A stretch of 64,000 nt of DNA from Stegostoma tigrinum (GCF_030684315.1 NC_081357.1:126618808-126682807); one strand, 5' to 3'. Shown: positions 3,000-63,679, counted from the first letter of the stretch. A program made the numbers and translations. The notes: generated from the sequence alone by a model not told the origin.

Positions 3000-5900
3000 T
3001 TGGATCATTGGGATCTTATCTTCTGGGACAGAAGAGTCCTGTTAAAAATGGACAGGTTTCACCTGAACTGGAGAGGGACCAATATTCAGGTGGGGAGATT
3101 TGCTTTTTCTATTTGGGAACCATTAAACTAGTGGGGAGGCAGGTTGGAGAGATCCTCAGTAGTAGTAAGAATAGGAAGGCATTTGAGGATGGTTCTGAAG
3201 TCAAAGAGAGCAAGTTAATTAGAAAAGGCAGGCAAGAGCAAGTCAGAGAATGAGGGAACGCTGAAGTATTAAACTGCATGTATTTCAGTGCAAGAGGTGT
3301 TACAAGTACAGCAGATGAACTCAGGGCATGTATGGGACTGAAACATCAGAGCTATTATGACTCATAGATGACGGAGAGACAGGACTGGGAACTCAATGTT
3401 CTGAGGTTCAGATCCCATATGAAGGATAGAAAGGGAGGCAAGAAAAGGGGGGGAGTGGCATTCTTCATTAGAGAAAACATTACTGCTGTACTCAGAGAGG
3501 ATACTTCTGAGAGATCATTCAGTGGGTGGAACTCAGAAATAAGAAAGGGACAATCACTTTGATGGGATTGTGTGATAGCGTCTCCCACCCCAATAGTCAG
3601 CAGGAAGCTGAGAAGCAGACGTGTAGAGAGATCTCAGATATGTGTCAGAATAACTGGGTTGTAATAGTAGGGGATTTTAACTTTCCAAACATTGCCTGGG
3701 ACTACCATAATGCAAAGGGCTTGGAAACTGAGGAATTTGTTAAATGTGTTCAATAAATTTTTTTTATTGATATGTAAATGTAGCTAACAGAAAAGGAGCA
3801 AAAATTGATCTTTTAGGAAATAAGGGCAGGACAAGTGATGAAAGAAAAACAAAGTTCCTGTGAAGGAGAAAAGAGTTAACGTTTTGGGTCCGGTAACCCT
3901 TCCTCAGAACAGAAGGTGGCCGGGAAATCGTCAGTTTATCTGCAGAAAATAGCGAGGGGGTTGGGGTAGGGAGTAAACAATAGGGAGAGAGCTCAAAGAG
4001 AGAGAAAGACAGTTGGACAGACAAAGGAGTTGCTAATGATCAGGTTCAGAAGGCGAATAATTGTTAATGGGGACTGTTAATGACTAACAACAGGATGTGT
4101 GTAATGGCAGACTATGTGGTAACAAGGCCTCGTGTGTGGGGTGGGGGTCTGGGACATGAGAGAGTTTAGGCCCTAAAATTATTGAACTCAATATTGAGTC
4201 CAGAAGGCTGTATGGTCCCCACACAGAAAATGAGGTGTTGTTAATGTTAGTGGGGGAATACTTTGGGACTAGTGATCATAATTCTTTAAAGTAGTTTTAA
4301 AATAGTTGTGGAAAAGGACCAGCCTAATATAAAAGTTAAAGTTCTTAATTGGAGTAAGGCAAATTTTGACAGCCTGAGACATAAACTTTCAGAAGTTGAT
4401 TGAGGTATTCAGTTTGCAGGAAAAGGATAATTGGCAAATTAGAGGCTTTCAAGAGTGTGATAATGTGAGTTCAGAGGCATTGTGTGTTGGTTTGAATGAA
4501 ATATAAGGCTGGCAAGAGCAGGTAACAATGAATGAATAAAGATATTGAGGAACAAGTCTAAAATAAGAAGGAGACATATGTTAGGTATAGACAACTGAGA
4601 TCAAGTGAATCCCTTGAAGAGTACAAGGAGTTGAAGGGCCTTCACAAGAGGGAAATCAGGAGGCCAAAAAGGGGATAAACGATAGCGTTGGTAGATAAGG
4701 TAAAGGATAATCCTAAGAGATGCTACAAGTACATTAAGAACAAAACAGCAACTAGAGAGACAATAGGGCTGCTTAAACATTAATGAGGTGGTTGATGGAA
4801 CCACAGGAAATAGGAGAGTTGCTAGATGAGTATCTTGTGTCAGCTTTTACTTTGGAGAAAGATGTGGAGACTAGGGAATTTGGGAAAATCAGTACTGATG
4901 TCCCAACAGTACTCATGACAGAAGAGGCGGAGGTCCTAAAAAACATAAACGTAGATAAATCTCCGGGACCCATCAAGTGTATTCCAGGACATTGTGGGAA
5001 CTTAGGAAAGAAATTAGGGGACACCTAGCGGAGATATTTATATAATCTATAGCCAAGGGTGAGGCACTGGAAGACTGGAGGGTGGCTAATGTGCCAATGT
5101 TTAAGAAAGGCTATAAGGAGAAGCCTGGGCACTATAGACCAACAAGTCTGACATCAGTGGTGGGTAAATTGTTGGAGATGATCCTGAGAGATAGGATTTA
5201 CATACATTTGGAGAGGCAAGGACTGATTCAGGATAGTAGGCAAGGATTTGTGCGTGGGAAATTGTGTCTCATAAACTTGATTGAGTTTTTTGAGGAGGTG
5301 ACCAAACAAATTGATGATGTTAGAGCAGTAGACAGTTATTTTACACCGACTTTAGTAAAGCTTTTGATAAGGTTTTGCATGATAGACTGATTAGTAAAGT
5401 TAGGTCATGTGGGATTCAGAGAGAGCTTGTCAATTAAACATAGGAAGCATGGTTAGCATGTTTATGGTTGACGCCAAGATTGGTTGTATAGTCGGCAGTA
5501 AAGAAGGTTATCTAAGATTACAATGGGACCTGATCAGATGGGCCAGTAGGCTGAGGAGTGGTAGATGGAATTTAATTTGGATAAATGCGAGTTATTCCAT
5601 TTAGGTAAAACAAACAAGGGCAGGACTTACACGGTTTATGATAGGGCTAGGTGGTATTGTCAAACAGAGAGATCAGATATGTAATTCTTTGAAAGTTGTG
5701 TCACATGTAGACAGGGTAGTTGAGAAGACATTTGCGATGCTTATCTCCATCACTCAGACCGTTGAGAATAGGAGTTGGAACGTCAGGTTGAGGTTGTACA
5801 CAATGTTGGTGTAGCCACTGTTGGAGTATCGTGTGCAGTTCTGATTACCCTGCTATAGGAGGGATATTAGTGAATTGAAGAGAGTTCAGAAAAGATTTAC

Positions 5901-6356
5901 CAGGATGTTGCCAAGTTTGGAGGGGTATGAGTTATAAAAAGGGACTTTTCTCACTGGAGCTCAGAGATTGAGGGGTGATCTTATAGAGGTTTATAAAATC
6001 AGGAGGGGCTTAAATAAGGTGAATAGCAAGGTGTTTCCTTAGCATGGGGGAATTCAAAACTAGGGGACATATTTTTAAGGTGAGAGGAGAAAAATTTAGA
6101 AAACAAATGAGGGGCAATTTTTTTGCTCAGAGGGTAGTTCATGTGTGGAATGAACTTCCTGAGAAACTGGCAGATGCAGGTACAGTTACAACGTTTAAAA
6201 GATATTTGGATAAATTCATGAATAGGAAAGGTTTGGAGGGATATAGACCAAATGCAAACAAGTGGGACTAGTTTGGTTTGGCAAACTTGGTTAGAATGGA
6301 TGATTTGGACCAAAGAGCCTGTTTCCATGCCATATGATTATATGACTGTATGACTA
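3000..6356 (+). mobile_element. Degenerate CR1 LINE (end of ORF1 region, APE endonuclease, RT, 3' tail), internally deleted and interrupted
   Basis: Fragments DRKGGKKRGGVAF, VIVGDFNFPNI, NVDKSPGP, KPGHYRPTSLTSVVGKLLE and TRGHIFKV...FFAQRVV; tail atgattatatgactgtatgact; many stops and frameshifts. Confidence 0.92.
3858..4243 (-). mobile_element. Penelope-like (Neptune-type) 3' end with hammerhead motif, inserted in CR1
   Basis: The minus strand encodes QHLIFCVGTIQPSGLNIEFNNFR (GIY-YIG C-terminus), followed by CTGAGGA-AGGGTTACCGGACCC-AAAACGTTAAC at 3907-3877. Confidence 0.85.
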
Positions 6357-7164
6357 CTTTTTAAATGGGCTTCTCCTTAAGATTATAAACATTAGTATTT
6401 CTCTGTAAATGTAAGTGACACAATGGCACACAAGGAAGTTTGGTTTTATTTTAATTTTATAATTTAGATGCCTAAATTTCAATTTCATCTTTGCCACTCT
6501 GATCTGAAAGAACCCTTTCTAAATAATCAATGTTGTTTTTATGATCAGTGCTTGCACACAGTAGTGCAGATATGGCATCCCCAGTGAAATGTGTGAGCTC
6601 AGTCCGAACTATATGATTTATACTCAAATGTTCCTGTGATGCTTTCTGAAATACTTCTGTATATTCAGCTGTAATCGACAGCAGAATTATAGCAAATTAT
6701 TAGCAATTACACTCAAATAATTTTCATCTTCCATTTTAACTGATGGGCCTTTTTCTACTGAAAGATATTTTATTGGGCCAGTCTCCTGATTTTGTGGTCT
6801 GGTTGGTGGTATTCACAAAGCAGAATCACCAACCTGGGCATCCAATGAATCTGCATGACAGGCAGAAGGGAACAATTAAGCATTCATAAAAGTTTGAAGG
6901 AGCCACTTACCTTCTCAGCCTCGTCACATTCCAGGTTTTCTACACTCAGTCAGCCACAGAGTTACACTTGCCTGGTTCTGCTAGAAGTGTTTCTTTAGGT
7001 TTAAGGATGTTTTGGAATGACTGTTAGACCCTTTGCTGTTTGATGGCATTGATCCAGCTACAGTGAGTCAATGCTCATTCCATCAGAGTATTCTCACCAC
7101 TGTGCCACTGCTGTATCAGAAAAGGGGTGTGGACTCTGACCCAGAGTATTGTTTTAAACCCATC

Positions 7165-8055
7165 CATTTACTTCCCTCCCTCCTCGCTATCCAAGACCCT
7201 AGACACCTTCCGGCTGAATCAATGATTTATTTGCACTTCACTCAATCTAGTCTACTGTCTTCGCTGCTCACATTATGGTCTTCCTGACACCGTAGAAATG
7301 AATTACAACTGCTGTGCCAAAATCCTATGCTCTGATTGCAAAAATGACCCTGAGTTTTTAGTTCCTTGCTACTGTAACACACCACCATGTTCCCTGGCCA
7401 GGGATCTCTGTTTCAGGCTTGCTGCAATGCTCCAGCGAAGCTGAGCACCTCATTTTCCACTTGGGAGCTCTACGGACTCAATACCAAGTTTAACAATTTT
7501 AGGACTTCAGGCACCTTTTGCCATGTCCTTACCCCAACCACCACCCATCAGGCCTAGTCCTCACCTGGGTTGCTAACACAAACAACCCATTGTCAGCTGC
7601 AAAGAGTCCCCATTAGCAGCTACCCATTCCCCCAGCCTGACCTTTACCCATTCATTTGTCTACAAACTGTTTCCTTCTCTCAGAGATAGCAGGAGCTGCA
7701 GATGCTGGAGAATCTGAGATAACAAGGTGTGGAGCTGGATGAACACAGCAGGCCAAGCAGTATCAGAGGGGCAGGAAGACTGCATTTTGGGCCTAGGGTC
7801 AAGGCCTGAAATGTCAGCCTCCCTGTTCCTTTGATGCTGCTTGACCTACTGTTTCCTTCTCTCTCTGGGTTCCATTGCCACCTACCCAACCTACCTGCAG
7901 CACATATACCAACAATTTCCCATCTACAGTCAGGTCTGAGGAAACACCACTGTATCTGAATCATTAACCCTGATTTCTTTCTACAGTGGCTGCCAGATCT
8001 GCTGCGTTTCTCCAGCAATTTCTGTTTTTACTTTGGATTTATTTCATTATTTTGC
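7165..8055 (+). mobile_element. Degenerate Neptune-type Penelope 3' end (GIY-YIG remnant + pLTR)
   Basis: Remnant TSLNLVYCLRCS and EHLIFHLG..FNNFR; decayed hammerhead near 7936; 3' pLTR similar to family B. Confidence 0.75.
7682..7847. mobile_element. Palindromic Penelope-pLTR element, family A
   Basis: Inverted arms; perfect 16-bp TSD actgtttccttctctc at 7666-7681 and 7848-7863. Confidence 0.9.
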
Positions 8056-8145
8056 TGTTTTATATGACTGAATTTGAAGTTATGATTCAGTTACAGAAGC
8101 TGATAGTAGTTAGGCTTCATTGAGCATGGCAATATCAGGCTGTTA

Positions 8146-8383
8146 AAAAACAAATGAACTGCGTATGCTGTAAGTCTGGAACAAGAACAAAGTCGCTGGA
8201 AAAGCTCAGCAGGTCTGGCAGCATCTGTGAAGGAAAAATACAGAGTTAAGATTTCAGGTCCGGTGTTCTGTCTCATTTCAGTTCTGAGGAAGGGTCACTG
8301 GACCGGAAATATTAACTCTGTCTTATCCTTCACAGATACTGCCAGACCTGCTGAGCTTTTCCAGCAACTTTGTTTTTGTTCCT
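8146..8383. mobile_element. Palindromic Penelope-pLTR element, family B, hammerhead at centre
   Basis: Inverted arms of about 90 bp; gttCTGAGGAagggtcactggaccgGAAATATTaac from 8281; flanking repeat aatatcagg at 8131 and 8384. Confidence 0.88.
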
Positions 8384-8394
8384 AATATCAGGTG

Positions 8395-8620: not shown

Positions 8621-9778
8621 ACATGAGGTATCATATTTGGCATTTCATCTCCCATTGTTCTTGCCAGTTTTGCAATTTCGGAAAGTCACCTTGCAATTAA
8701 TTGACATGATCTTGAGTTTTTCCTGACACATAGACCACAAAATGTTACAACCAGTCCTGAGACGAGGTTCCTTAATGTATTACCAATCCAGACAGAGTAC
8801 GTGAAATTGTCAAAATCCCAGGTGAGGAGGGTAAACTGGCTCTCACCCTCTGTAGTTCGAACAAGGCTATATTGAAAAGGCACCCTTTACCTTGTGAATT
8901 CCTTCCTCCCACACCAAATTAATTAGTTTTTTTGGAAGTAGCCAACTGAACCAGGCTTTCTTGAGTTAATGAAAGGTGAGTATATTAGCTATTAAACACG
9001 TAAAACAGAATATTGCAACACATGTACACAGGTTTTACCACACTGTGTGAGATACAAACCACCATCAACAAACCACAGGCCCGCAAAACAGCAAAACAAA
9101 ACGGCTGCAAGATTGTAAGGGTAATGATAAATGATGCACACAACCGTCTCCACAACTGCAACAGAGAAATTACGCACCAAAAAACTTTATTCCTGGAAGC
9201 TACCAATCAAGACTGGACAACGGTCATGGAGCGAGCCATCAACATCAGCCAACAGACCACAAGAGCCTAGAAAAGACAGACCCTTCAAGACAAGCTCGCC
9301 ACACTTTCCCACAAAAATGACATCAGAACAGGCACCTGGATAAGAAACCTCTCTGACAGGAAAGTGACAGACACAGAAAAAGCCATTCTCTCAGAGGACT
9401 GAATTACAACTACAGGGACGCCAAAAAAACAGAGTTCCTAGCCACACTAAGGACCAACAATATCAACAAAGAAACACAACAAACAATAAGACAGACAGTA
9501 ATCCCGACACTAGCCAGAAGGAGCAAACGCAACACCCTCAACACATTGAAAAGACAGGCCCTGGAAGGCGTGAATAAGGACAAGAACATTACAATATTAC
9601 CCGCAGACAAAGGGCACAAGACAGTGATACAGAATAAAAAGGACTACATTTCCAAGGCACAGGCACTGCTCGCTGACGAGAACACATACTGGCCAGTACA
9701 AACTGATCCGACACCGTTACTCAGCAACAAAATCCTCTACTCGCTAAAAAGACTTAAACAGACAGGACAGATCAACAA

Positions 9779-9871
9779 GATAATAAAATGTGAGGCTGGA
9801 TGAACACAGCAGGCCAAGCAGCATCTCAGGAGCACAAAAGCTGACGTTTCGGGCCTAGACCCTTCATCTCT
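9779..9871 (-). mobile_element. 93-bp single-arm family A hammerhead element inserted in the Penelope ORF
   Basis: Perfect 15-bp TSD aggacagatcaacaa (9764-9778, 9872-9886); minus strand GATGAagggtctaggcccGAAACGTC. Confidence 0.93.
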
Positions 9872-10789
9872 AGGACAGATCAACAAAGCAGACTTCTTAA
9901 GAAAGAAACCCAAAGGAACCAAAACACCCAGATTCTACGGCCTCCCGAAAGTGCACAAACCGGAAGTACCCCTCAGGCCCATAGTGTCCCTACCGGGCAC
10001 TCCATCGCACAGATTAGCCAAGGAACCACAAAGCAGACTAAGGCACCTAGTCAACAAGTCACCCCACTCTATCCGCTCTGCCCAAGAATTCCTCAACTCC
10101 TTCAAAGACATAAGGATAGATGACGAAGAGACCATGACATTGTTTGAGGTCACTGCCCTATTTACATCAATAGACATACCACTAGCAAGGGAAACAAGGA
10201 CAGAAAACTGGAACAAGAGCAAGACTCCAGTAAAACCATCTCCACAGGCAACATCCTGAAACCACTGGACCTATGCCTCACCACCTACTTCACTTTCAAT
10301 GGCCATACATACAAACAAATCAACGGGACACCCACAGGATCACCAATCTCCGGACTCATAGCAGGGGCAGTGATGCAAAGACTAGAAAAACGTCCCTTCT
10401 GCAAATCCAACCAAAACTATGGATACGCTATGTGGATGACACCTTTGTCACCATTAAACAGACCAAACTAGAGGAGACATAAAAACTTATAAACAACACA
10501 TTGGAATAAAATTAGACAGAGAGGAGGAGAAGAACAAACAGCTCCCATTCCTGGACATCATGATAGAGCGCAAGACAAATGGGGAACTGCACATGAAAGT
10601 ACACAGAAAAGCCACACACACAAACCAGGTACTGAGCTTCCATCCCAGCACACACAAACAAAGCTGCGTGCGAACACTATTTAAAGGGGCAACAACACAC
10701 TGCAGCAACATGGAACTATACCAAAAGGAAGAACAATACCTCTTCCGGGTTTTCCAGGATAATGGGTATCCAACAAACTGGGTCAGAAG

Positions 10790-11350
10790 ATGCTACACGC
10801 CCCCAATGCACTCATCACACTACCCTACATCAGGAACATAACAAAACTAACCACAAGACTCCTACGACTGCTGGGTATCAGGGTGGCACACAACCCCACC
10901 TCAACCCTACGACAAGTGCTCACCCGAACTAAAGACCGACTCCCCGCCATGGACAGGACCAATGTCATCTACAAGATCCCCTGCAGAGACTGCGAGAAAC
11001 ACTACATCGGACAAACAGGAAGGAAACTAATAACAAGAGTGCATGCACACCAACTGGCTACAAAAAGACACGGCCAATACTCACTCATCTCAATCCACAT
11101 GGACAAGGAGAACCACCAATTTGACGGGGACAACACCAAAATCCTGGAACAAGCTAAGCAGAGACAGGCACCGGAATTCCTAGAAGCCCAGCACTCCACG
11201 AAGAAAGACATCAATAAACGCATAGAACTCGACCCCATATACACTCCACTACAAAGGAAAACCGGAAGTCAGGCAATCGAGCTGAATGGACCTCAGAGTT
11301 TAAAAACCAGGCGGGAAAACACACCAACGCTTCATTGGAGGTTGCAGTGA
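10790..11350 (+). pseudogene. Penelope GIY-YIG endonuclease domain remnant
   Basis: LPYI...VIYKIPC..C...YIGQTGR.L..R..H...E motif pattern. Confidence 0.9.
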
Positions 11351-11794
11351 GGATGTTACCAAGCACAATAATGAAATATCTGTGGAAGAACAAACCAGCT
11401 CGTTGAGCCAACCAGCCTCAACATCCACAACCCGAGCTACAGATCTACTCCGTAACCTTAGACATGCATGCGATGATTAAAAATAAGGAATGAGCCTTAA
11501 AAAAGATAGAAGTAAAATAAAAATGTACAAATGAGTCTCTCAAATCTGTGAAGAGTAAATGTTGGAATATCATGGCCTTTATATTTGTTGATGCCAGTGG
11601 TACAGCTGTTGGTAGGCAAGTAGTTGATTTTTAAATTAGACAAATAAATGTTTGGAAAATATGACTTTCATTATCTGTCACAATGCCAAACATTCCTCAT
11701 TAGAAATCCAAGACCGTATTTGGCTTTTTGGATCAGCTTAACTTCTTACGTCCTGTTTCATTGTTTGCTGGCTTGCAGCATTCAGAATGATAGA

Positions 11795-16875: not shown

Positions 16876-16996
16876 TTGCATTTCAGGAGGGTTCAAGCAG
16901 TTTAGAAAATAGAGTCACGGAGATCTGCAACATAGAAAAAGGTCCTTCAAACCATCAAGTACGTGCCAGTTAAAAACAATCATCAACCAATTTAAA

Positions 16997-17167
16997 TAAA
17001 TACCAAAAGAACTGCGGAAGCTGTAAATCAGGAACAAAGTTAACGTTTCAGGTCCGGTGACCCTTCCTCAGAACTGAGGAAGGGTCATCGGACCCGAAAT
17101 GTTAATTCTGTTTTCTCCTCCACAGATGGTGCCAGACTGCTGAGCTTTTCCAGCAACTTTGTTTTTG
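16997..17167. mobile_element. Palindromic family B element with two head-to-head hammerhead cores
   Basis: Minus CTGAGGAagggtcaccggacctGAAACGTTaac (17071-17039) and plus CTGAGGAagggtcatcggacccGAAATGTTaat (17074-17106). Confidence 0.9.
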
Positions 17168-17589
17168 AGCCAAACAATCTAAACCCTTTTTCTATCATTT
17201 GATTCGTAGCCATAGATACCTTGGCATCACTTGTGTGCATCTAAATACATATTAAGTGTTATGTGGGTTCCTGCCCTTAGGGCCCTTTCAGGCATATGGA
17301 ATCTTACAGAATAGAATAGAATGGAAATTTATTGTCACATGCATTTTTACTGAAAAACTCAGCGAAAAAATTATAAGTCACCCCATCAGGGTGCTTAGAG
17401 AATGGTGGGCTCGGCTTGAGGGGCTGAATGGCTTACTCCTGTCCCTGTTTCTTTTGTTCTTTTCAGGGCTTGGGAGTCAGCTAAGAGCACCAGAAATAGT
17501 AATCTGAGAACCTGTTTTGCAAGATTCTTCTAACTCCTAACCTTGCATTTTCACAAGCAGCCATAGATTCATACTTTCAAAGTAAATAG

Positions 17590-22340: not shown

Positions 22341-22344
22341 GGAA

Positions 22345-25402: not shown

Positions 25403-25403
25403 C

Positions 25404-26082
25404 AAATCCTGATGAAAGGTCTAGGCCGGAAACATCAACTTTCTTGCTCCTCTGATGCTGCCTGGCCTGCTGAGTTCCTCCAGCCCCACATTGTGTTCCC
25501 TCTGATGCTGCCTGGCCTGCTGAGTTCCTCCAGCCCCACATTGTGTTCCCTCTGATGCTGCCTGGCCTGCTGAGTTCCTCCAGCCCCACATTGTGTTCCC
25601 TCTGATGCTGCCTGGCCTGCTGAGTTCCTCCAGCCCCACACTGTGTTCCCTCTGATGCTGCCTGGCCTGCTGAGTTCCTCCAGCCCCACACTGTGTTCCC
25701 TCTGATGCTGCCTGGCCTGCTGAGTTCCTCCAGCCCCACACTGTGTTCCCTCTGATGCTGCCTGGCCTGCTGAGTTCCTTCAGCCCCACATTGTGTTCCC
25801 TCTGATGCGGCCTGGCCTGCTGAGTTCCTCTAGCCCCACACTGTTCTCCCTCTGATGCTGCCTGGCCTGCTGAGTTCCTCCAGCCCCACACTGTGTTCCT
25901 TCTGATGCTGCCTGGCCGGCTGAGTTCCTCCAGCTCCACACTGTGTTCCCTCTGAAGCTGCCTGGCCTGCTGAGTTCCCCAGCTCCACACTGTGTTCCCT
26001 CTGATGCTGCCTGGCCTGCTGAGTTCCTCCAGCCCCACACTATATCGATTCTGACTCCAGCATCTCCAGTTCTTGCGATCTC
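25404..26082 (+). mobile_element. Family A hammerhead pLTR with internal tandem amplification
   Basis: CTGATGAaaggtctaggccgGAAACATC at 25409-25436, then the array, then the pLTR end ctccagcatctccagttc. Confidence 0.88.
25451..26040. repeat. 50-bp tandem array, 11 full units + 1 partial
   Basis: Unit tctgatgctgcctggcctgctgagttcctccagccccaca(t/c)tgtgttccc, near-identical copies. Confidence 0.97.
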
Positions 26083-27420: not shown

Positions 27421-27810
27421 TGTGGAGAAGCTCAGCAGGTCTGTCAAAATCTGTGGAGAGAAAAGCAGAATTAAATTTTTGACTCCAGAAATTCTACTTT
27501 GGGACAGCTAGGACTTTTGGGAATCAAGTTTGGAAACACGCAAAAGACTGTAGAAATTTTGGAAACTTCCTCTACAAATGGTAGTTGATTCTGGGTTTGA
27601 TGTCTGAGATGAATAATTTCAGTTATCCAAAATTATCAATGGGTATAGATCAAAGATAGGGGATAGGTCACAGATCAGTCTTGGTCACATTGAATGGTGC
27701 AACTAGCTTATGGAGAGGATAGGTTGCAGGCTAAATAGATATTATAGATCCAAGATGGCAACAGAGTAGGATGCTCCAGACAGAGTGCATCTGCCCCAAC
27801 TGTTCCTTTT

Positions 27811-27894
27811 CAGACAGTCACCTGAGGGTAGAATTGAACCCAGGTCCCTGGCACTGTGAGGCAGCAGTGCTAACCACTGAGACACCATGCCACC
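27811..27894 (-). mobile_element. HE1/V-SINE 5' fragment
   Basis: Minus strand ggtggcatggtgtctcagtggttagcactgctgcctcacag...gggttcaattc. Confidence 0.85.
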
Positions 27895-29329: not shown

Positions 29330-29463
29330 GAGGTAACACAGTGTGGAGCTGGTGGAGCGCAGCAGGCCAGGCAATTTTGGAGGAGCAGGAGAGTTGACGT
29401 TTTGGGTCGGGACCCTTCTTAAGAAATCTGTGTGTTCTCTTTGACTCCAGTAGTTCTTACTAT
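29330..29463. mobile_element. Family A pLTR element (minus arm + short plus arm)
   Basis: 14-bp TSD ctcat(g/t)tctgagca at 29316-29329 and 29464-29477; decayed minus-strand hammerhead. Confidence 0.8.
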
Positions 29464-33094: not shown

Positions 33095-33243
33095 AATGTA
33101 CTGAAGGTGAAAATGCTGGAAATTACCGTTGGCCAGACCTCAGCTGTTCTGATGAAGTCATCTAGACTTGAAACATTAGCTTCCTCTCTCTCCATGGATA
33201 CTGCTTAATCCTGCTATGACTTCCAGTATTTTTTTTGCTTTCA
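33095..33243. mobile_element. Hammerhead pLTR element, family D
   Basis: CTGATGA-AGTC-atcta-GACTT-GAAAC-ATT at 33149-33177, with a short inverted arm upstream. Confidence 0.7.
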
Positions 33244-36335: not shown

Positions 36336-36407
36336 TCGGAGACTCTGGGATACTCTGCGATAATAGAAAGAGAAATGATTTCCACTGGAGGGGCATGAAT
36401 TCTCTCA

Positions 36408-36614
36408 CAAAAACAGAAACTTCAGGAGAAACTCTGCAGGACTGTCAGCATCTGTGGAGAGAAAGCAGAGTTAACATTTTATGTCCGGTGACCCTTCAGT
36501 TCTGAATTCAATTCATTCTACACATTCATTCTGCTGCCAGAGCTGTTGTGTTTCTCCAGTAATTTTTGTTTTTGTTTCAGATTTCCAGCATCTGTAATTC
36601 TGCGTTTTATTTTT
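36408..36614. mobile_element. Palindromic family B element (decayed)
   Basis: Inverted arms; partial hammerhead gtccggtgacccttc. Confidence 0.75.
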
Positions 36615-37168: not shown

Positions 37169-37247
37169 CAGTAAAAACCAAAAGAACTGCGGATGCCGTA
37201 AATCAGGAACAAAAACAGGAGCTTCTCCAGAAAGTTTGTTTTTGTTC
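37169..37247. mobile_element. Mini family B palindrome lacking the hammerhead
   Basis: 9-bp TSD ccgattcaa (37160-37168, 37248-37256); arms ggaacaaaaaca / tgtttttgttcc. Confidence 0.75.
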
Positions 37248-39920: not shown

Positions 39921-40112
39921 AGGTGTAGCACTGGATGAGCACACCAGGCCAGGCAGCATCAGAGGAGCAGGAAAGCCAGTGTTTCTGGTCTGGATCCTTC
40001 TTCAGAAATTTCTGTATTTCTGAAGAAGAGTCCAGACCTGAAATGTCAGCTTTCCTGCTCTTCGGATGCTGCCTGGCCTGCTGTGTTCATCCAGCTCTAC
40101 ACCTTCTTATCT
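39921..40112. mobile_element. Palindromic family A element with two decayed hammerheads
   Basis: Inverted arms; CTGAAGAagagtccagacctGAAATGTC from 40020. Confidence 0.85.
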
Positions 40113-42814
40113 CTATTGCTGCTTTAGCTCCTCGAGCTGTCTGCAGTCTTTGATATCATTGATCAGATCTTGCTCCTCTACTGGTGTCCCACTAGACGGA
40201 GCTGCTTTCATTCTTATGTGTGTAAGTATTTGTGTGTTTGAGGAGTGGCTGTGTTGTGCTTAAATTTTAGTGATTGGGAAAAATGGCATCATTTGCTTTT
40301 TGATTTAAACCTACAAGAAAGTCTGCTTCCTGCCTGTTCTTTAGCCACAGCACTTGAAAGGTTTAATATAGCCCTTCTTAAATATATATCTTATTGTGGC
40401 CGGCTAAGAGGGAGAAAAAAAGGGGAAAACTTTCCCACATCTCTCCCCATCTGCAAGAGACAACCTATTTGTGTCATGACTAACACCATATATTTCTATC
40501 TTGATTATACTGCTTGAGCTCACTCCTTTCTTAGCTCATCTACTGTTGAAACCCTCCCCATGGCTTACTTAGCTCTAGAATTGATTGTTCCAATGTGCTG
40601 CAAACTGATCTCTCACTGTGCCAACTTACAAGTGTGGGAAATGTGGTGGATTGCCTGCCCCTCAAGCAACCAATTAACACTTAATCATCCAGTTAGGATT
40701 CAAGGGTAACTAGAAAAAGTAATTGCCCAGCAGGTGATGCCGACGTTCCATCAATGAACAAAAAAAAGTGTAATGGATGGAGAGAAAGTTACAGGAGTAA
40801 AGGTTAATATTTACAAAAGGAGTGCAGAGGATGAGATTTCTAAACATTTAAGTGATGAGCAACTTTATTAATGGATCATATTGTGTATTATGAGAGCAGG
40901 CAAGGTTTCTCTGCTGCCAATAATGTCTTAAATTATCTGAGAAACGAAGTACTCAAAGCTCTTCTGAACCATTGAGATTATCCTAAGTGCACATCAATTA
41001 TATAAGATATAACTCTCCATGGTGTACTGTGTGGTAAGTAAGGAAATAGAGGGAGGTTTGGATTCAGTATTGTCTGCAGGAAAACATCTGATCTGGAGAT
41101 CTAGGATGCTTAATATGATTTTCCTTTTGCAGAGTATGACGTTATCTACTGAGCTGATTCCCCAGTTTGGTACTTCTGGTGAGAATCAGTGTCCACAGGG
41201 AACTCTGACTGGAAAATCAGGGACTATGATGTGGACGTGGAGTGGGAGCAGAGCTCCTGCAGTTATAAATGAAATGATGAAAGCTACTTTACTGCAGGAA
41301 CTCACAATCATCGTTTTATTCCATTTGCTGCCTGAGAAGCTGTGAGATTGATAATTTAGGTGAGCTGCCAGTCTGGAAACTCAACACAAACACAAAGGTG
41401 ATTATAGCACAAGTGAATGGGTGTTCACGTAAAAGTGACCCCCCCGCAATACAATTCCCAAAGCTTGACCAAATGTCAAGACCCTAGATCCTACTGCCCC
41501 CAAGGCGTTCGGTGATATTACCTCACTCTGTGCACATTGAAACTGTCCCAGATGTGAGTGAGGCTGAAATTTCTTCCTAACATACCTCTCAGAGGAGTGA
41601 GGGGAATGATTGAAGTGAAGTATTTTAATTGACGTGGAGATGTATTCCCTGTCCACCTGTCCAATACAGTTGGCAGAGGTCTCCCAGTACCAGAGGAAAG
41701 CCCGACTGCAGCAGGAGGTAAGTAATTGGGAGGCTGTGTCAGTAAAGTGCCTTTCTTAGCCAGTTTCTAAAAACTTCAATTGAAAAACAGAATGGGAAAA
41801 AACAGTCAGGCCATCACTGAATGTTGGGGGTAAGCTGTACGCGTTCATGGGGAGTTCCTATTTGGCTATTGCCTCCGGGCAGATTGGTACAGTGTGTAGC
41901 CCTGTCAGGAGATCTGGCATCACAGCCTGCTCCTGGATTTCCACCTCCTGACAGTTAGATCTATGTCTCCTTCTGACCCGTCACATCACGTTGGGAAACA
42001 GACCGGAAAACTCTAAACATACCGAACGTAAGATTCTTCATGACCCTATCGCCTGCCGGTCTTGTGCTGCCTTACCTGGCTCCAAACCTTCCCCCACTGC
42101 CTCACTCAGGAGGCCGGTACTCCTGCCCTGAGGCAGAGACACTATGGCTGATGCTGGTGATTTTGGGTCGTACCTTACCACCATTCCTGACTTTGTGCAA
42201 AGCTGTATTTTCCCCATGTCATCCACAGTTTGATGCTTAGATGTGCTGTTTCAGTTATGGCTGCTCTCATTCCCTCCAACAGAAACAGCATTAGAAGCCC
42301 AGAACCAGCTAGGATCCTACCTATTTCTTGTGCCTCAGCACCATTTAATAAACTCAGTCAGAGCTGAACGTGTACATCATTCTTTCTTGCTATAAGGTTC
42401 TTTATTGCTAATCTCATTGCTAATATGTAGGCCTCATTGTGACTTTATGCCAGTGTGGGCATTAGCTGGCTTCCAATAAAAGCAAAGATAGGTATTCTCG
42501 TCTTCAGGCTTGCTGGGGCAATGGGAGTGGAAGGCAATGTGTGCCAGTGAGGTGAGGCTTAAAGATTCAGAGTTAGATGGTAGTCACTCACTCACAACAA
42601 TGAGGAGAGGCAGTACACAGAAGGTCCATTGGAGGAGGCTAGGGGACCACATCTGCTCTGAGAAGCATTCAGATCTGATCATTTCTAGCACCATTTAATT
42701 GTTGTACCTCTCGTGACTGTGGAAGCCTAGCCAGCCAGCATTGTATTCAGCTCAGGCTCCCAGATTGAACTGTGTAAGGATGGCACACGTACATGCATTT
42801 ACTATCATCATTAT

Positions 42815-44405
42815 CTGACAGGATCAGACAGAGTCAGCATGGATAAATGAAAGGAAAATGATGTTTGACCAATCTGCTGGAATTTGTCAAGGAGGTATCC
42901 AGTCGAGTTGTTAAAGGGGAGCCAGTGGATGTGGTTTACTTGGACCTTCAGAGGCTTTTGATGAAATCCCACACAAGAGATTGACATGCAAAATTAAAGC
43001 GCATGGGATCGGGGTAGTGTATTGAAATGGACAACTGGTTAGCAGATAGGAAATAAAGAGTGGTAGTAAGTTTGGTTTTCTGAGTGTGAAGCAGTGCTTG
43101 GTGGGATATTGTAGGATCACTGCTTGGACCCCAATGATTCACAATATATAATTAATGATTTAGGTGAGGAAACTGAATGCGATATCTCCAGGTTTGCAGA
43201 CAACACAAAGCTGTGTGGGAGGGTGAACTGTGAGGAGGGTGCAAAGATGCTTCTAAGGTTTTGGAGTAGATCAATAGCTCAGGTTGTGGGTGCTGAGGTT
43301 GGTTGGCTCGCTGAGCTGGTTTATTCTTCTGCAGACATTTTGTTACTGTGCTGGGTAACATCCTCAGTGCAGCCTCTGATGAAGCATCGGTGTGTTTTCC
43401 CGCCTGGTTTTTAAACTCTGGGGTCCATTGTGATGGATTGCCTCACTTCCGGATTTCCTCCACTGTGGAATGTGTATGGGGTCGAGTTCAATGTGTTTAT
43501 TAATAGTCTGCTTCATGGAGTGCCATGCTTTCAGGAATTCTCGTGCTTGTCTCCGCTTAACCTGCCCCAGGATCTTGGTGTTGTCTTGGTGATGCTTCAG
43601 TGAGATTTGAACAAGTTCTGTGATTGGACAAATGCATGGCAGATGAGGTAAATTGTGGATAATTATGGGGTTATCCTCTTTGGTAGCAAAGACAAGAAAG
43701 CTGCTTAATTATCTGAATGGTGATAGATTGGGAATGGGAGGTTGCACTGGGATCTGAAAAGAAGACTATTGATGCAGCAGGCAGTAAAGAGGGCAAATGA
43801 TATGTTGATCTTCACAGTGAGAGGATTTGAGCTCGAGAGTAGGGATGTCTTGCTGTAATTGTACAGGGCTTTGGTGAGACCACACCTGGAGTACTGTATG
43901 CAGTCTTGGCCTCTATCTTTGTGGAAGGATGTTTTGGCTAAAATGAGATTGTGGTGAAGGTTTCCCAGACTGATTCCTGGGATGGCAGGACTGACTTGAG
44001 AGACTGGATTGTATATTCACTGGAGTTTAGAAAATTAAAGGGGGAGTCTCATAGAAGACTATAAAATTCTAACAGGACTAGAAGAGTAAATGGAGGAAAG
44101 ATGTTCTCAAAGACCTGGAAGTCTTGAAACAGATGTCACAGTCGAAAGATACGTGGTAGGCCACTGAGAACCAAATGAAGAGTAATTTCTTCATCTAAAG
44201 AGTAATCTACCTGTGGAATTCTCTGCCACATTAAGGTTGAAGCCAAAACATTATGTTTTCAAGGTCTGAGGGCTGAAGAAATCAAAGGGTGTGGGGAGAG
44301 ATCAATACCAGGGTACTGAACTGGATGATCTGCCATGATCATATTAAAGGACAGAACAGGGTTGAAAGGCTGACTGGCCGATCCCTGCTCCTTTTTTCTA
44401 CATTT
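42815..44405 (+). mobile_element. Degenerate CR1 RT region
   Basis: YLDLQ.AFDEIPHKRL, SRFADNTKL and RPHLEYCMQSW. Confidence 0.88.
43254..43590 (-). mobile_element. Poseidon-type Penelope 3' end inserted in CR1
   Basis: Reverse complement of about 11130-11460; 8-bp TSD gatgcttc (43246-43253, 43591-43598). Confidence 0.9.
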
Positions 44406-45268
44406 TTGGATTTCTTTTACATTTTAATCCACCTCCACTTACAACACTCTCCTATCAAAACTGGGGAATAGAAGATTAATATTGACCCTTGTGTGTATAC
44501 ATTTCAAATAATCTTTATACTGGGATGATTTTCATTTTGGCTACAATTCAGCTTTCAGTGTTCTTTCTTCTTCTCAGATGTGTGGTGGCCTCCTGGGGAA
44601 TGTCAGTATGGGCCCGGATTGATTTTTTTTCAGGTTTAACTTTATACTGAGTTCACAAAATCCTGTTGAAATGAATTGAGAATGAGACAGGCTGAGAGAC
44701 AAGGACACTGTTGCAAAGCTCGTATCTTTGGCTGTGCTGCGAATTTACCCAAGATATTGGCTAATGGTGCATAACCCCTTGCATTTACAGACAATTCACT
44801 ATCTTGTCCCTTCACGCACTAACCAATATCCTTTGGTTATTCTGACATTCCTGGTGCATTGAACAATATTCGACATGCTAGGAAAAAAATAAAAAATGAT
44901 AGGTAAAACATTGGGTGAAGTTTTCTTCTTGACTTGCCTGCAGAGCTAGTTGGGGAGGATTAGTGTGTAGAAAACTTGGAAGTCAAGGTTCCAGCTTAGA
45001 ATTTTGAATGTGAAGCATCTATAGCATGTGTGTGACATCACTGATGAGCTCCCCACTCAGACACTAGTCTGATTGGCAGGGAGGTGCTATCTTATCCCTG
45101 AGTGTTTGGTAGAGGGAGGGAGATTTGTTCTTTGTTTACAGGGAGGTCTAATTCCCAGGGCCCCAGAATGGGAGGTACAAGTTTATGATGGGAAATGGAG
45201 ATCAAATGGAGAGGTTGGTGGGGTGACTGAAAGTCACAGAGGTTTGGGCACGCAGGCAAATTGAACCA

Positions 45269-46089
45269 GAGATAATGGGAACTGCAGATGCTGGAGAATC
45301 CGAGCTAACAAAGTGTGGAGCTGGATGAACGCAGAAGGCCAAGCAGCATCTCAGGAGCACAAAAGCTGACGTTTTGGGCCTAGACCCTTCATCAGAAAAG
45401 CTTTTTTTTCTGCATGTCCATGGTGAAAATGAAGCATTGGGGACCGGGGAAATGCTTGGGGACCGCTTTGCAGAACACCTACGCTTGGTTCGCAATAAAC
45501 AACTGCACCTCTCAGTCGCAAACCATTTCAACTCCCCCTCCCATTCCATAGATGACATGTCCATCCTGGGCCTCCTGCGTGCCACAATGATGCCACCTGT
45601 AGGTTGCAAGAACAGCAACTCACGTTCCGCTTGGGAACCCTGCAGCCCAATGGTATCAATGTGGATTTCACCAGCTTTGAAATCTCCCCTCCCCCCACTA
45701 CATCCCAAAACCAGCCCAGCTCATCCCCGCCTGCCTAAACTGTTCTTCCTCTCATCTATCTCCTCCTCCCACCTCAAGCCGCACTTCCATTCCCAACCTA
45801 CTAACCTCATCCCGCCTCCTTGACCTGTCCGTCCTTCCCAGACTGATCTATCCTCTCCCCGCCTATGCTCTCCTCTCCACCTATCTTATCCTCTATCCAT
45901 CTTCAGTCCACCTCCCCCCTCTCTTCCTATTTATTTCAGAACCCTCTCCCCATCCCCCTCTCTGATGAAGGGTCTAGGCCCGAAACATCAGCTTTTGTGC
46001 TCCTGAGATGCTGCTTGGCCTGCTGTGTTCATCCAGCTCCACACTTTGTTATCTCGGATTCTCCAGCATCTGTAGTTCCCATTATCTCT
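45269..46089 (+). mobile_element. Neptune-type Penelope 3' end with inverted 5' pLTR (family A parent)
   Basis: LGDRFAEHL..V...VANHFNSPSHS / LGTLQPNGINVDF; hammerhead 45962-45989; terminal inverted copy of about 125 bp at 45269-45395. Confidence 0.92.
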
Positions 46090-47093: not shown

Positions 47094-47303
47094 TGATAAT
47101 AGGAACTGCAGATGCTGGAGAACCCAAGATAATAAAATGTGAGGCTGGATGAACACAGCAGGCCCAGTGGCATTCTCAGGAGCACAAAAGCTGATGTTTC
47201 GGGCCTAGACTCTTCATCAGAGAGGATGAAGGGTCTAGGCCCGAAACGTCAGCTTTTGTGCTCCTGAGATGCTGCTGGGCCTGCTGTGTTCATCCAGCCT
47301 CAC
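47094..47303. mobile_element. Palindromic family A element
   Basis: Perfect 14-bp TSD acttactgtaacag (47080-47093, 47304-47317); head-to-head hammerhead cores at 47191-47220 (minus) and 47225-47250 (plus, lacking the first CT). Confidence 0.93.
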
Positions 47304-47619: not shown

Positions 47620-48240
47620 ACTACTGTAACAGGAAGGATAATATTAAACTGGAAAGGGTTCAGAAAAGATTTACCAGGATATTGCCAGAATGGCTTACAA
47701 AGATAGGCTGGATAGGTTGGGGGATTCTGAAGAAGGGCCTAGGCCCGAAACATCAGCTTTCCTGCTCCTATGATGCTGCTTGGCCTGCTGTGTTCATCCA
47801 GCTCTACACCTTGTTATCTATGGATAGGCTGGGGCGTTTTTTCACAGCAGCATAGGAGGTTAAAGGGTGACCTTACAGAAATTTATAAAATCATGACAGG
47901 CATTGTTTCGGTGAATAGTGAAGGTCTTTTCTCTAAGGTGGGGGAGTCTGAAACTAGAGGACATATGTTTAAGGTGAGGGGAGAAAGATTTAAAAAGTAA
48001 ATGAAGGGTGACTTTTTTACATAACGAATAGTTCGTGTGTCAAAAGAACTGCCAGAGGAAGTGGTGGATACAGGTACAGTTACAACATTTAAAAGACATT
48101 TGGACAAGTTCATGAATAGGAAAGGTTTGGACGGATATGGGCCAAATGCAGGCAGGTGGGACTAGTTAAGTTTGGAAATATTATTAAAATGTTCCAGTTA
48201 GGTCTATTTCTATGCTGTATGATACTATGACTCTATGACT
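47620..48240 (+). mobile_element. CR1 3' fragment
   Basis: KLERVQKRFTRILP and TRGHMFKV; tail ctatgactctatgact. Confidence 0.9.
47723..47820 (+). mobile_element. Single-arm family A hammerhead element inserted in CR1
   Basis: TSD tggatagg(t/c)tgggg (47709-47722, 47821-47834); CTGAAGAagggcctaggcccGAAACATC. Confidence 0.9.
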
Positions 48241-49640: not shown

Positions 49641-49851
49641 TAGAGATACTAGGAACTGCTGATGCTGGAGAATCTGAGATAACAGGGTGTAGAGCTGGAT
49701 GAACACAGCAGGCCAAGCAGCGTCAGAGGAGCAGGAAGGCTGATGTCTCTGGCCTAGACCTTTCTGATGAAGGGTTTAGGCCCGAAAGGTCAGCTTTTGT
49801 GCTCCTAAGATGCTGCTTGGCCTGCTGTGTTCATCCAGCTTCACACTTTGT
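49641..49851. mobile_element. Palindromic family A element with arms from two subfamilies
   Basis: Inverted arms; plus-strand CTGATGAagggtttaggcccGAAAGGTC near 49764. Confidence 0.88.
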
Positions 49852-50352
49852 TCTACTGCTTGACTAACTGCTTGAGATGCGCAAGATGATCTTGATATCG
49901 CAATAAGTCACTCAAACATATTACCTGATTTTACCACACATCTCACCATAGCCCACATTGCTCAGAAACTGATCATATTTCCACCAGTGTTGTAAGAATT
50001 GCTCATATCGTATTGCATAGAGAATGCAGCAATCACTCTGCAGTGCCGCACAAGAAACAGTGAGATGAATAACGTTCTGATCTGATTTTAATGGCATTGG
50101 CTGAAGGTAATTGTTTTCTAACAGTTCAAAAGTAGTGAAACAAAAACCGTATTTTTCCAAAAAAGAAATTTCTATCCTCTTCTTCCTGCAATGGATTCAC
50201 AATAAATTTGATTCCTTTAGACTGAAAAACAGTTTCAATAGCCTGTTCTAAAGTATAACTAGCGGTTACTTGAAGATTGTAAATTACAACACCAGTCTAA
50301 TAAAGCTTGCACATCCTCCATAGTTATCAGTTTGACAAGCACTACCTGGGAA

Positions 50353-50528
50353 TGGATGTCTATTTATAAATATAAATTGATAAATGGAAAGCCAGCGCTT
50401 CGTCGGAGGCTCACTGATGATGTTACCTAGAATGGTGACGAAACGTCTGAAAACGAACCTTCCAGCTCAGCGAGCAAACTCACATCCAGAAACTCAACCT
50501 GAGCTACAAATCTTCTCAGAACTCGCTA
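50353..50528 (+). mobile_element. Solo Poseidon-type pLTR
   Basis: Similar to 11320-11460; TSD ac(t/c)acctgggaa at 50341-50352 and 50529-50540. Confidence 0.85.
50411..50450 (+). ncRNA. Minimal type I hammerhead ribozyme motif (intact core)
   Basis: tca-CTGATGA-t-GTTACC-tagaat-GGTGAC-GAAAC-GTC-tga: stem I TCA/TGA, 6-bp stem II, GUC cleavage triplet. Confidence 0.8.
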
Positions 50529-51669: not shown

Positions 51670-51770
51670 TCAGAGTTCTTCATCAGCTAACCTATACCAG
51701 ACTCAAAACATTAACTCTGTTTCTCTCTCCATAGATGCTGACAGACCTGTTGAGTTTCTCCTGCACTTTC
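51670..51770 (+). mobile_element. Decayed hammerhead pLTR fragment (family B/D)
   Basis: ccagactcaaaacattaactctgtttctctctccatagatgctgacagacctg. Confidence 0.6.
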
Positions 51771-55652: not shown

Positions 55653-55871
55653 GAGTGAGGTAGTAGGAACTGCTGATGCTTGAGAATCTGAGATAACACG
55701 GTATAAAGCTGGATGAACACAGCAGGCCAAGCAGAATCAGAGGGGCAGGAAAGTTGACATTTTGGGTAGAGACCCTTCTTCTAAGGAAGGCTCTTGACCT
55801 GAAACGTCAACTTTCCTGCTCCTCTGATGCTGCTTGGCCTGCTGTGTTCATCCAGTCTCACTCCGTGTTAT
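55653..55871. mobile_element. Palindromic family A element
   Basis: 15-bp TSD ctattata(g/c)tggctt (55638-55652, 55872-55886); inverted arms meeting at the hammerhead. Confidence 0.9.
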
Positions 55872-56057: not shown

Positions 56058-56660
56058 ATAAATCACATGACACCAGATTATGATCCAACAGGTACATTTG
56101 AAAACACAAGCTTTCAGATCCTTGCTCCTTCTTCAGGCATTAGTGAGGTGGTGTCAAACATAGAACTTATAAATAAAGGATCAAAATTTCACACCACTGA
56201 TGAGGATGTATTAAAGAAACCTAAGCTACTGTTAAGTCATTAATCAGTTAGAAGGTTGTAATTGATTAATATGTGTATGTAAATCCCTAAATTTCTTTCA
56301 AATCACTGCCCTGAGAGAACTAAAGGCTTTATCTATGTAAAGAAGAGGTGACATTTTAGGTCAGACAATGCATTTTAGGAATGAGGCCTTTTTTAGAATC
56401 TGTTTGTGTTCTGGTTTCAAGTCAGACTGGTTTTATTTATAAAGTAGGAATTTATAAAATGCCATGTTGGCTGACTGTCTGTAAATTGCGTGCTTTCTGA
56501 ATAAAATAGAATGTATCTGCAAGTACAAGTTCACCTCATAGATACATATGCGCACATGTGTGTCTGTGTATGTGTGTGTGTAGGCAAGTGAGAATGAGTC
56601 TGGGTGTGTGTGCGTGTGAGTGTGTGTGCGTGTGTGCGTGCGCGTGTATTTGTGTGAGAA
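56058..56660 (-). mobile_element. Penelope-like 3' UTR/pLTR, family C, with (CA)n tract
   Basis: Minus strand CTGAAGA-aggagcaaggatct-GAAAGCTT at 56136-56108; imperfect (TG)n at 56556-56656. Confidence 0.7.
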
Positions 56661-57125: not shown

Positions 57126-57159
57126 AGCAGTAAGAGGGAGCCTCCAATGTTGAGTTAGG

Positions 57160-57270
57160 ACTCTTCATCAAGTCAATTTTCCTGCTCCTTTGATGTTGCC
57201 TGGCCTGTTGTGTTCCTCCAAATCCTCACCGTGTTGCCTCTGACTTCAGCATCTGCAGTTCTTACTCTTC
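57160..57270 (+). mobile_element. Family A pLTR fragment
   Basis: ttcctgctcctttgatgttgcctggcctgttgtgttc...cagcatctgcagttc. Confidence 0.75.
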
Positions 57271-62271: not shown

Positions 62272-62982
62272 CTGAAGAGAAATATATTAGCAACAGGATT
62301 GACTGATAGCATTGTGAGATATTGAACAGAATCTACCTTCATTGAGAACAGAAACATATTCCTCGAAAAAGGCATTGAATCTAAACTCAAACAATTGAGA
62401 TAAGTTGAAACTGTTGAGGAAAACTAAATGACTAAGACAACAACTTAATGAGTACATTAAACTCATTATTGTGTTTATTCAAGAAATACCAGTAATGACC
62501 AGCTCTCCCTGCTCACACTCAAGAGTTTTCTATTGATTCTGTATACACCAAATGATCAGTAACAAGACTGGAAATAATAAGTTTAGTTTCTTTATTGATT
62601 TTTCATAGAAATTGTATTCATTAAATAGGGTTAAATCCATTTACATTATACCAATGCATTATTGTGAAACGATTCTTTTTATGCTACTGTTTAATTTGGT
62701 GCGAAAAGAACTTTACAAGGATGTTACCGAGACTGGCAGGGAGAGGCTGGGCAGGCTGGGATATTTTTCACCAGAGTGTAGGAGGCAGAGAGCTGATAGT
62801 ATTGTCCAGAAGTATATCTCCTTTCCTTCATTTTCACCAGGTCAAATTCCAGGAACTCCTTCCCCAACAGCAATGTGGCTATGCCTACATCTGGTGGAGT
62901 GTAGCAATTTGAGAAAGTAGCCACTGTGCCTGTGTTGCTAAGACCACAAGAAAGAATATTAAGAAACAATGATTGTAGTCTG

Positions 62983-63679
62983 AGATGACAAAGTGTGGAG
63001 CTGGATGAACACAGCAGGCCAAGCAGCATCTCAGGAGCTCAAAAGCTGACGTTTCAGGCCTAGACCCTTCATCAGAGAGGGGGATGAGGAGAGGGAACTG
63101 GAATAAATAGGGAGAGAGGGGGAGGTGGACCAGGGAGGGAGAGAAAACAAGATAGGTAGAGAGGAGAGTATAGGTGAGGAGGTAGGGAGGGGATAGGTCA
63201 GTCCAGGGAAGACGGACAGGTCAAGGAGGTGGGATGAGGTGGTAGGTAGGAAATAGACGTGCGGCTTGAGGTGGGAGGAAGGGATGGGTGAGAGGAAGAA
63301 CAGGTTAGGGAAGGAGAGACAAGCTGGGCTGGTTTTGGGATGCAGTGGGGTGAGGGGACGAGCTTGCTGGTTTTGTGATGCAGTGGGGGAAGGGGAGATT
63401 TTGAAACTTGTGAAGTTCACATTGATACCATTGGGCTGCAGGGTTCCCAAGCGGAATATGAGTTGCTGTTCCTACAACCTTCGAGTGGCATCATTGTGGC
63501 ACTGCAGGAGGCCCATGATGGACATGTTGTCTGAGGAATGGGAGGGGGAATTGAAATGGTTCGTGACTCGTTTGTGATTCGTGCAGTTGTTTGTTGCGAA
63601 CCGAGCGGAGGTGTTCTGCAAAGCGGTCCCCAAGCCTCCGTTTGGTTTCCCCATTTCCCATTATCAATGTTCCCATTAT
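62983..63679 (-). mobile_element. Neptune-type Penelope 3' end (family A parent), 5'-truncated
   Basis: GETKRRLGDRFAEHL, NHFNSPSHS and LGTLQPNGINVNF; perfect 16-bp TSD caatgattgtagtctg (62967-62982, 63680-63695). Confidence 0.93.
63045..63078 (-). ncRNA. Minimal hammerhead ribozyme motif (intact core)
   Basis: ct-CTGATGA-a-GGGT-ctag-GCCT-GAAAC-GTC-ag. Confidence 0.75.

Follow-up and report, generated by a model that had tools for sequence, protein, structure and literature searches.

The 64,000-nucleotide stretch of the Stegostoma tigrinum genome considered here (GCF_030684315.1 NC_081357.1:126618808-126682807, hereafter the window) contains numerous short copies with hammerhead ribozyme motifs, and it raises the question of whether these copies form an independent, retrozyme-like system of short interspersed elements (SINEs), as a preliminary description of the window had proposed, or whether they are by-products of full Penelope-like elements (PLEs). 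We consider it probable that the short copies are run-off products from the front pseudo-long terminal repeat (pLTR) of uncleaved element RNA, made by the reverse transcriptase (RT) and GIY-YIG endonuclease (EN) of full elements; under this favored model, a separate master element is not needed. Coordinates are positions in the whole 64-kb stretch, and insertion loci, counts, and searches cover that window unless stated otherwise.

The hammerhead motifs are real and not the product of chance. A strict descriptor (CUGANGA, a stem II of at least 4 bp, GAAA, and NUH) retrieved 7 loci, whereas 100 dinucleotide shuffles yielded 0.12 on average and never more than 1, and the looser CUGANGA...GAAA pattern gave 26 matches when both strands were scanned. 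Matches to the latter such as 13940, 14831, 34872, 50545, and 56197 were dropped for want of a stem II; 3312, a lone relaxed match likely due to chance, was also set aside. A profile built from 14 arms of the families designated A, B, and D (cut-off E<=1) returned 41 rows in the window and none on the reversed window; two of these rows are weak (E 0.14 and 0.22) and 11 are units of a single tandem array. In total, 25 Penelope-derived insertion loci were counted, Poseidon-type and C copies included, that is about one per 2.6 kb; the earlier estimate was roughly one copy per 3 kb. All 14 of the coordinates first put forward have a hammerhead core, intact or decayed, and 12 keep both CUGANGA and GAAA, the exceptions being 3881 (AAAA for GAAA) and 9845 (devoid of C3-U4, as the copy begins at G5); the extra base reported between A9 and stem II was also seen in A, B, Poseidon, and C. 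An Rfam search of the window at E<=10 gave 10 matches, none of them to a hammerhead family, and its microRNA-like matches at 55740, 49728, and 47183 correspond to inverted pairs. The exact A-core pattern had 0 matches in metagenome contigs.

The ribozyme is part of the pLTR of autonomous-type elements within the window, since RT/GIY-YIG open reading frames (ORFs) end directly before ribozyme-bearing pLTRs. Indeed, the protein relative P0006 maps by tblastn directly upstream of the pLTRs with cores 45962, 63075, 3907, and 7936, and P0003 and P0005 map to 10011-11344 (P0003 also to 43585-43370); the pLTRs behind the P0003 matches have decayed cores (11347 and 43367), and the short copy 50392-50528 aligns with both of these pLTRs. 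By Pfam, P0004-P0006 hold RVT_1 and GIY-YIG domains, only part of the matches reaching the Pfam cut-offs; 10 broken frames of the window gave no relevant Pfam domain, and the A and B copies of the window retain the EN end only. Relatives of two of the ORF remnants come from Chiloscyllium, Hemiscyllium, Stegostoma, and Rhincodon. The hallmark of EN-containing (EN+) PLEs, an ORF that combines RT with GIY-YIG at its C terminus, followed by a pLTR, is found for A, B, E, and Poseidon copies and not for C (core 56136), for which alignments and protein searches of the window found no ORF link. Anatomy and position in the pLTR bear out the initial identification of these motifs as the minimal type I hammerheads of PLE pLTRs, and the Penelope RT/GIY-YIG, named earlier as the mobilizer, is a likely one. 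A CX2-5CxxC linker between RT and EN is described as a Neptune feature (PMC8557442), and P0006 has a CX4CxxC linker, so that A/B/D/E are provisionally assigned to the Neptune type from this closest relative; P0003 and P0005 are devoid of a Zn-finger-like linker, and 9357-11462, 43254-43590, and 50392-50528 are provisionally placed in the Poseidon type on this basis and on that of their initial label.

The five families, initially described as unrelated, reduce on alignment to three mutually non-alignable lineages, namely A/B/D/E, Poseidon, and C, the last being a single copy. The tails of A and B align with a score of 52, against a shuffle maximum of 28, and the two also align in pLTR and ORF end; D matches the B reference at 71 of 97 positions, and the pLTR of E (7205..8032) aligns with B. 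These alignments rule out A, B, and D as unrelated families and place them in one lineage, provisionally of Neptune type, and the other pairings among A, B, Poseidon, and C score at shuffle level. D, like C, is present as a single copy in the window, and A splits at 8 tail columns into A1 (7 arms) and A2 (10 arms), the short and long copies of A1 having diagnostic letters in common.

It is in their ends that the copies are most informative. Two solo copies, of 93 and 98 bp, sit within other elements between target duplications of 14-15 bp, which shows that these units were inserted as short units, and target duplications of 8-16 bp (score >=8) were found at 9 of the 25 loci, against 18 of 400 random placements. 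Eleven loci are inverted pairs with both tails facing the flanks, in which, at the threshold used, an optional tail is present on one arm only in 8, on both arms in 1, and on neither in 2. At their 5' side, the 15 short A arms of the window have alignments that begin within a stretch from about 6 nt ahead of C3 to 12 nt past it, whereas the 2 long A arms extend at least 300 nt and no start falls between the two classes; two further A matches consist of tail only (26003 and 57183). The short B/D arms match the long B copy for 3-6 nt at most before C3 (4 window arms), and the short Poseidon copy, with a start some 22 nt ahead of C3, retains its longer stem I strand.

A similar picture emerged from sequencing run X1, in which 254,919 contigs aligned to 45410-46130 at 80% likeness and for which end counts are those of the top rows listed. 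Among these rows, loose 3' ends gather at 46053-46055 (1271+1922+2960 = 6,153 contigs) and at 46089 (1,477), two sites about 35 nt apart, and the largest 5' loose end lies at 45961 (812 contigs), preceding C3 by one base and the predicted cleavage site by 29. The cleavage site itself was rejected as the main 5' boundary, the joints seen at 45990 being only minor ones; the copies contain the core in full and span that site. Palindromic junctions would tend to be hidden in X1 contigs. Contigs of the presumed-RNA runs X15 and X16 cover the repeat and are uninformative on ends or expression. X1 also holds tail-to-tail joints from the short to the long 3' end (46045-46054 to 46088-46090; 55 contigs in the best row), none of which occurs in the window and which the favored model does not explain. 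The 25 loci are as follows:

3845..4260, minus strand: long B copy with Neptune-type ORF end, pLTR, hammerhead (C3 3907, GAAA changed to AAAA), and tail with an internal deletion; P0006 tblastn match 4240-4172 and pLTR alignment.
7205..8032, plus strand: long, B-related E copy with ORF remnant (P0006 match 7205-7282), pLTR interrupted by an A pair, and decayed hammerhead (C3 7936).
7682..7847, both strands: A2 inverted pair with truncated cores and with tails pointing outward; 16-bp target duplication.
8140..8383, both strands: B inverted pair, 9-bp target duplication, core 8284 (plus) with stem II closing pair broken.
9357..11462, plus strand: Poseidon-type element with frameshifted RT/GIY-YIG ORF (P0003/P0005 tblastn 10011-11344), then pLTR and decayed hammerhead 11347.
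9779..9871, minus strand: A1 solo copy of 93 bp within the Poseidon ORF, 15-bp target duplication, beginning at G5 of the core.
16992..17170, both strands: B inverted pair, cores 17071 (minus; all elements, G.U closing pair) and 17074 (plus), weak duplication of 8 bp with 1 mismatch.
25409..26072, plus strand: A2 copy, tail expanded to an array of 11.9 x 50 bp without ribozyme.
27423..27481, minus strand: decayed B-type fragment, from profile and alignment.
29330..29427, minus strand: A2 solo copy, core decayed, target duplication not found.
33090..33240, both strands: B-related D copy, core 33149 (plus), with a short inverted tail piece upstream.
36407..36610, both strands: decayed B-type inverted pair, from profile and alignment.
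37172..37247, both strands: B inverted pair made up of tails and devoid of a core, 12-bp target duplication (1 mismatch).
39918..40118, both strands: A2 inverted pair, cores 40005 (minus) and 40020 (plus), 8-bp target duplication.
43254..43590, minus strand: Poseidon-type 3' fragment with ORF end and pLTR, decayed core 43367, 8-bp target duplication.
45268..46089, both strands: short A1 inverted arm (core 45395, minus) and long A1 copy with GIY-YIG ORF end, pyrimidine-rich pLTR, core 45962 (plus), and tail; P0006 matches 45341-45732; target duplication not found.
47094..47303, both strands: A1 inverted pair, 14-bp target duplication, core 47220 (minus).
47723..47820, plus strand: A2 solo copy of 98 bp within a LINE remnant, core 47727, target duplication of 14 bp (1 mismatch).
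49641..49852, both strands: mixed inverted pair, left arm A2, right arm A1 (core 49764, plus), target duplication not found.
50392..50528, plus strand: short Poseidon-type copy with canonical minimal hammerhead, C3 50414.
51670..51769, plus strand: decayed copy of B/D type that also has a small inverted part of the core.
55653..55871, both strands: A2 inverted pair, 15-bp target duplication with 1 mismatch, cores decayed.
56060..56160, minus strand: single C copy, core 56136, stem II decayed, with a (CA)n tract upstream (56557-56656).
57142..57261, plus strand: decayed A-type tail with an inverted core piece upstream.
62979..63652, minus strand: long A1 copy with GIY-YIG ORF end (P0006 matches 63652-63346), pLTR, core 63075 (all elements, G.U closing pair), and short tail.

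In the mechanism that we favor, GIY-YIG would nick both target strands 8-16 nt apart, each 3'-OH would serve as primer for RT at one or the other tail site, and the cDNA would run off where the RNA begins, or stall, just before C3. One primed strand would then yield a solo copy of 93-130 bp, two primed strands a head-to-head pair, and priming at the downstream pLTR a long copy. Since the copies hold the whole core upstream of the cleavage site, the template was uncleaved or religated, and since, in a pair, each arm is attached to target DNA by its 3' end, the pairs fit priming from the two nicked strands; the start of the RNA, priming from both strands in vivo, and cleavage of any kind are what we infer. 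The closest experimental parallel is PAc, a Poseidon element of Anolis carolinensis, of which the purified protein nicks and extends both strands and starts at two internal sites bounding the tail, the length of its cDNA following the template's 5' end, with uncleaved RNA being used and cleavage not being required (PMC11167929). The two RT start sites bounding the tail are like those mapped here, and the priming of both strands, the uncleaved template, and the weak, protein-assisted ribozyme of PAc may likewise have shark counterparts; unlike the shark copies, which are mostly Neptune-type, these are in vitro data on a Poseidon element, and the main text of that study reports no natural 5' run-off boundary. 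Inverted, 5'-truncated copies with a one-sided tail are also described as typical of PLEs (PMC8557442, PMC3846280).

Several points weigh against this reading. The claim that the short copies are flanked by target duplications held for the 9 loci mentioned above and failed for the other 16 of 25, at none of which a duplication passed the threshold. The 5' peak comprises 812 contigs against 7,630 at the four 3' positions, among the rows listed, and it is weakened by the fact that clipping can merge starts a few bases apart; moreover, a genome-scale 5' boundary was observed for family A only. No long A2 copy exists in the window, and the only hint of one comes from loose-end letters in X6 and X16, two runs that belong to other organisms. 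Palindromic junctions also find an explanation in self-priming from an antisense template (PMC3846280). In addition, X1 contains head-to-tail joints of a 94-98 nt unit (46054/46055 to 45958-45961; 63 contigs in 4 listed rows), and core positions outside CpG differ from the subfamily majority in 4 of 147 cells against 82 of 969 in the tail (p=0.012). As we read it, this last difference may reflect constraint in the source elements together with ascertainment, the alternative being selection on the short copies, although the arms had been chosen by core and the tail rate is raised by subfamily differences.

The state of the cores bears on what the ribozyme could still do in these copies. Stem II is wholly different across the three lineages and yet paired, which supports the motif, and 82.5% of stem cells pair in 21 A/B/D/E arms. 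Within this lineage, the statement that stem II keeps complementarity was not confirmed: pairs are broken at 25409, 40005, 8284, 47220, and 33149, and the covariation score of the A/B/D/E alignment, albeit above all six slid controls, was reached by 75 of 500 shuffles. Nor do all copies have a palindromic stem III, which is kept in 9 of 21 arms and replaced by ACAT or ATGT in most others through CpG decay. CpG decay broke most cores; at the four core CpG positions, 22 of 68 cells depart from the subfamily majority, compared with 82 of 969 tail cells. The minimal hammerhead definition is broken in 19 of the 21 A/B/D/E arms; only 63075 and 17071 keep all elements (both boxes, four stem II pairs, palindrome, and UH), with a G.U as closing pair 10.1-11.1 in both. 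The sole fully canonical minimal hammerhead of the window is the Poseidon-type 50414, with a 6-bp stem II, ACGU, and a predicted cleavage after 50447. Stem I adjoining the core measures 2-4 bp, and monomer folding gave no significant z-score against shuffles (z -1.5 to +0.8). If there is any ribozyme function, be it weak or assisted by a dimer or by protein, it is likely one of the source elements and not of the short copies.

Among the alternatives, the one that survives best, and which we nevertheless regard as rather unlikely, is that of short non-autonomous masters of about 94-130 nt, SINE- or retrozyme-like, with their own transcription, dimer self-cleavage, perhaps circularization, and use of Penelope proteins in trans. 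The discrete ends agree with it, the summed X1 depth (not a measure of copy number) rising from about 2.7M at 45910-45934 to 25M at 45960-45984, and the aforementioned head-to-tail joints are what a circular or tandem short template would give; the solo 93- and 98-bp copies with duplications, the better-kept non-CpG core, and the report of PLE-derived retrozymes in vertebrates, including one chondrichthyan (bioRxiv 2026.07.22.740005), can also be counted in its favor. However, head-to-tail tandem units each with a ribozyme were not found in the window, none of its 8 tandem-repeat rows containing one, and a scan of 6 units for the internal RNA polymerase III (Pol III) promoter of SINEs such as the ribozyme SINEs of schistosomes found an exact box B in none and a box A only with 1 mismatch. 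Two different 3' ends do not suit a single circle, the cleavage site does not coincide with the 5' boundary, A1 copies have the same diagnostic letters whether short or long, and most cores are broken. Given a window with neither ribozyme-bearing tandem nor Pol III box B, we do not file the copies as retrozymes or SINEs, and the independent system proposed in the preliminary description is not supported, the more so as long, ORF-linked A, B, and Poseidon copies occur in the window and the cleavage site is spanned. The head-to-tail joints in X1 contigs make a small retrozyme-like fraction genome-wide possible. With regard to such tandems, the 50-bp array at 25449-26041 (11.9 copies, 95% matches), a minisatellite born from an A2 Penelope tail, was rejected as a retrozyme, the core being absent from it.

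Retrozymes are described as derived from pLTRs (bioRxiv 2026.07.22.740005), and the favored model can be extended, tentatively, into a Penelope step, undescribed in the literature examined, that shark genomes would record. Both nicks would prime at the two tail sites of an uncleaved RNA that begins with the first ribozyme bases. The many copies of 93-130 bp would then be strong-stop-like cDNAs, some of the 94-98 nt units having given rise to tandem retrozymes that propagate themselves and are the smallest of their kind. We hold this conjunction to be less likely than not; if true, it would show directly how retrozymes arise from PLEs.

Ordinary severe 5' truncation, in which RT would start at the tail of the downstream pLTR and, on reaching the ribozyme fold or the pyrimidine tract behind it, fall off or switch template, with palindromes made by self-priming or microhomology, appears to us improbable. 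A high rate of truncation is described as typical of PLEs (PMC8557442), microhomology overlaps exist at the junctions 7795/7796 and 49762-49764, and 5' starts are spread over about 18 nt. Against this, no arm begins within 300 nt upstream of the core, the weak predicted folding makes no strong structural block evident, and both arms of a pair end at tail sites; were this explanation nonetheless correct, the 5' boundary would say nothing on the RNA start. Finally, that the motifs are chance matches or assembly artefacts, as the lack of an Rfam hammerhead match and of significant monomer folds might suggest, is next to impossible and already refuted by the shuffles, by the ORF-linked pLTR position in two different PLE clades with an anatomy that agrees with published minimal hammerheads, and by identical ends recurring in independent sequencing runs.

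The ribozyme motif, its anatomy, and its mass solo occurrence are already published for PLEs. Minimal type I hammerhead ribozymes (min-HHR) were reported in the pLTRs of metazoan PLEs, including fish Poseidon and Neptune; in coelacanth and Xenopus, their solo copies number in the thousands (Cervera and De la Pena 2014, PMC4209133). As far as that description goes, the shark motifs are alike in their core boxes, the extra base between 9 and 10.1, G10.1-C11.1, the palindromic 15.2-16.2, and the lack of a real helix III, as well as in the presence of several families per genome, mostly solo copies, and opposite-strand pairs 100-700 bp apart; they differ by their host, by a stem II of 4-6 bp with a stem I of only 2-4 bp, and by the mapping of solo-copy ends presented here. 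The likeness to the inverted-pLTR insertions of EN+ PLEs (PMC8557442, PMC3846280) lies in 5'-truncated inverted copies, a one-sided optional tail of 30-40 bp, and palindromic junctions; unlike those insertions, for which duplications of 8-10 bp are given, shark loci reach 16 bp, and shark arms usually consist of ribozyme and tail only (<250 bp in all), with 5' ends clustered at the core. Non-LTR retrozymes (PMC7229834; bioRxiv 2026.07.22.740005) resemble the shark copies as pLTR-related, non-coding, dispersed monomers with a type I hammerhead, but are described as head-to-tail tandems with a ribozyme per unit, canonical cores, and circular RNAs (PMC7229834), of which the window has none and the contigs only rare joints. 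A literature search of openly accessible papers, outside Dfam and Repbase, listed none on these shark families or on a fixed 5' boundary. The value of the locus lies in the ends, that is, in thousands of copies, the fixed start just before the core, the intact cleavage site, and the inverted arms of which one is long and one short; they bear on how PLEs integrate and on what their hammerhead does, and give testable predictions on the RNA start, the priming of both strands, and the dispensability of cleavage.

Other observations concern the Penelope-derived sequences themselves. The long A/B copies have, some 20-35 nt ahead of C3, a pyrimidine tract whose last letters are CAG (45925-45940, 63110-63097 on the minus strand, and approximately 3955-3940 on the minus strand), and it may be a splice acceptor, by analogy with the Drosophila virilis intron described as ending at helix I (PMC4209133). 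In the mixed pair at 49641-49852, the left arm is A2 at 7 of 8 columns and the right arm A1 at 7 of 8, which would correspond to two RNAs in one event or to a nested insertion. Two A copies lie inside other PLEs, namely 9779-9871 in the Poseidon ORF and 7682-7847 in the E pLTR, and 11795-12634 is a decayed Neptune-type RT remnant (P0006 matches) with no adjoining pLTR or ribozyme. P0002, a Chiloscyllium protein with the annotation of a MAP3K7 isoform, contains Poseidon-like sequence, either through annotation read-through or as an exonized element.

Beyond these elements, the window contains mutually related long interspersed element (LINE) RT remnants at 3-908, 5046-6284, 19772-20554, and 47624-48179, which we take to be of CR1 type, and a 30-bp minisatellite of 14 copies at 24396-24815. 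A dispersed repeat of about 200 bp, presumably SINE-like, is found at 48723-48922 and 59520-59719, and at 27811-27892.

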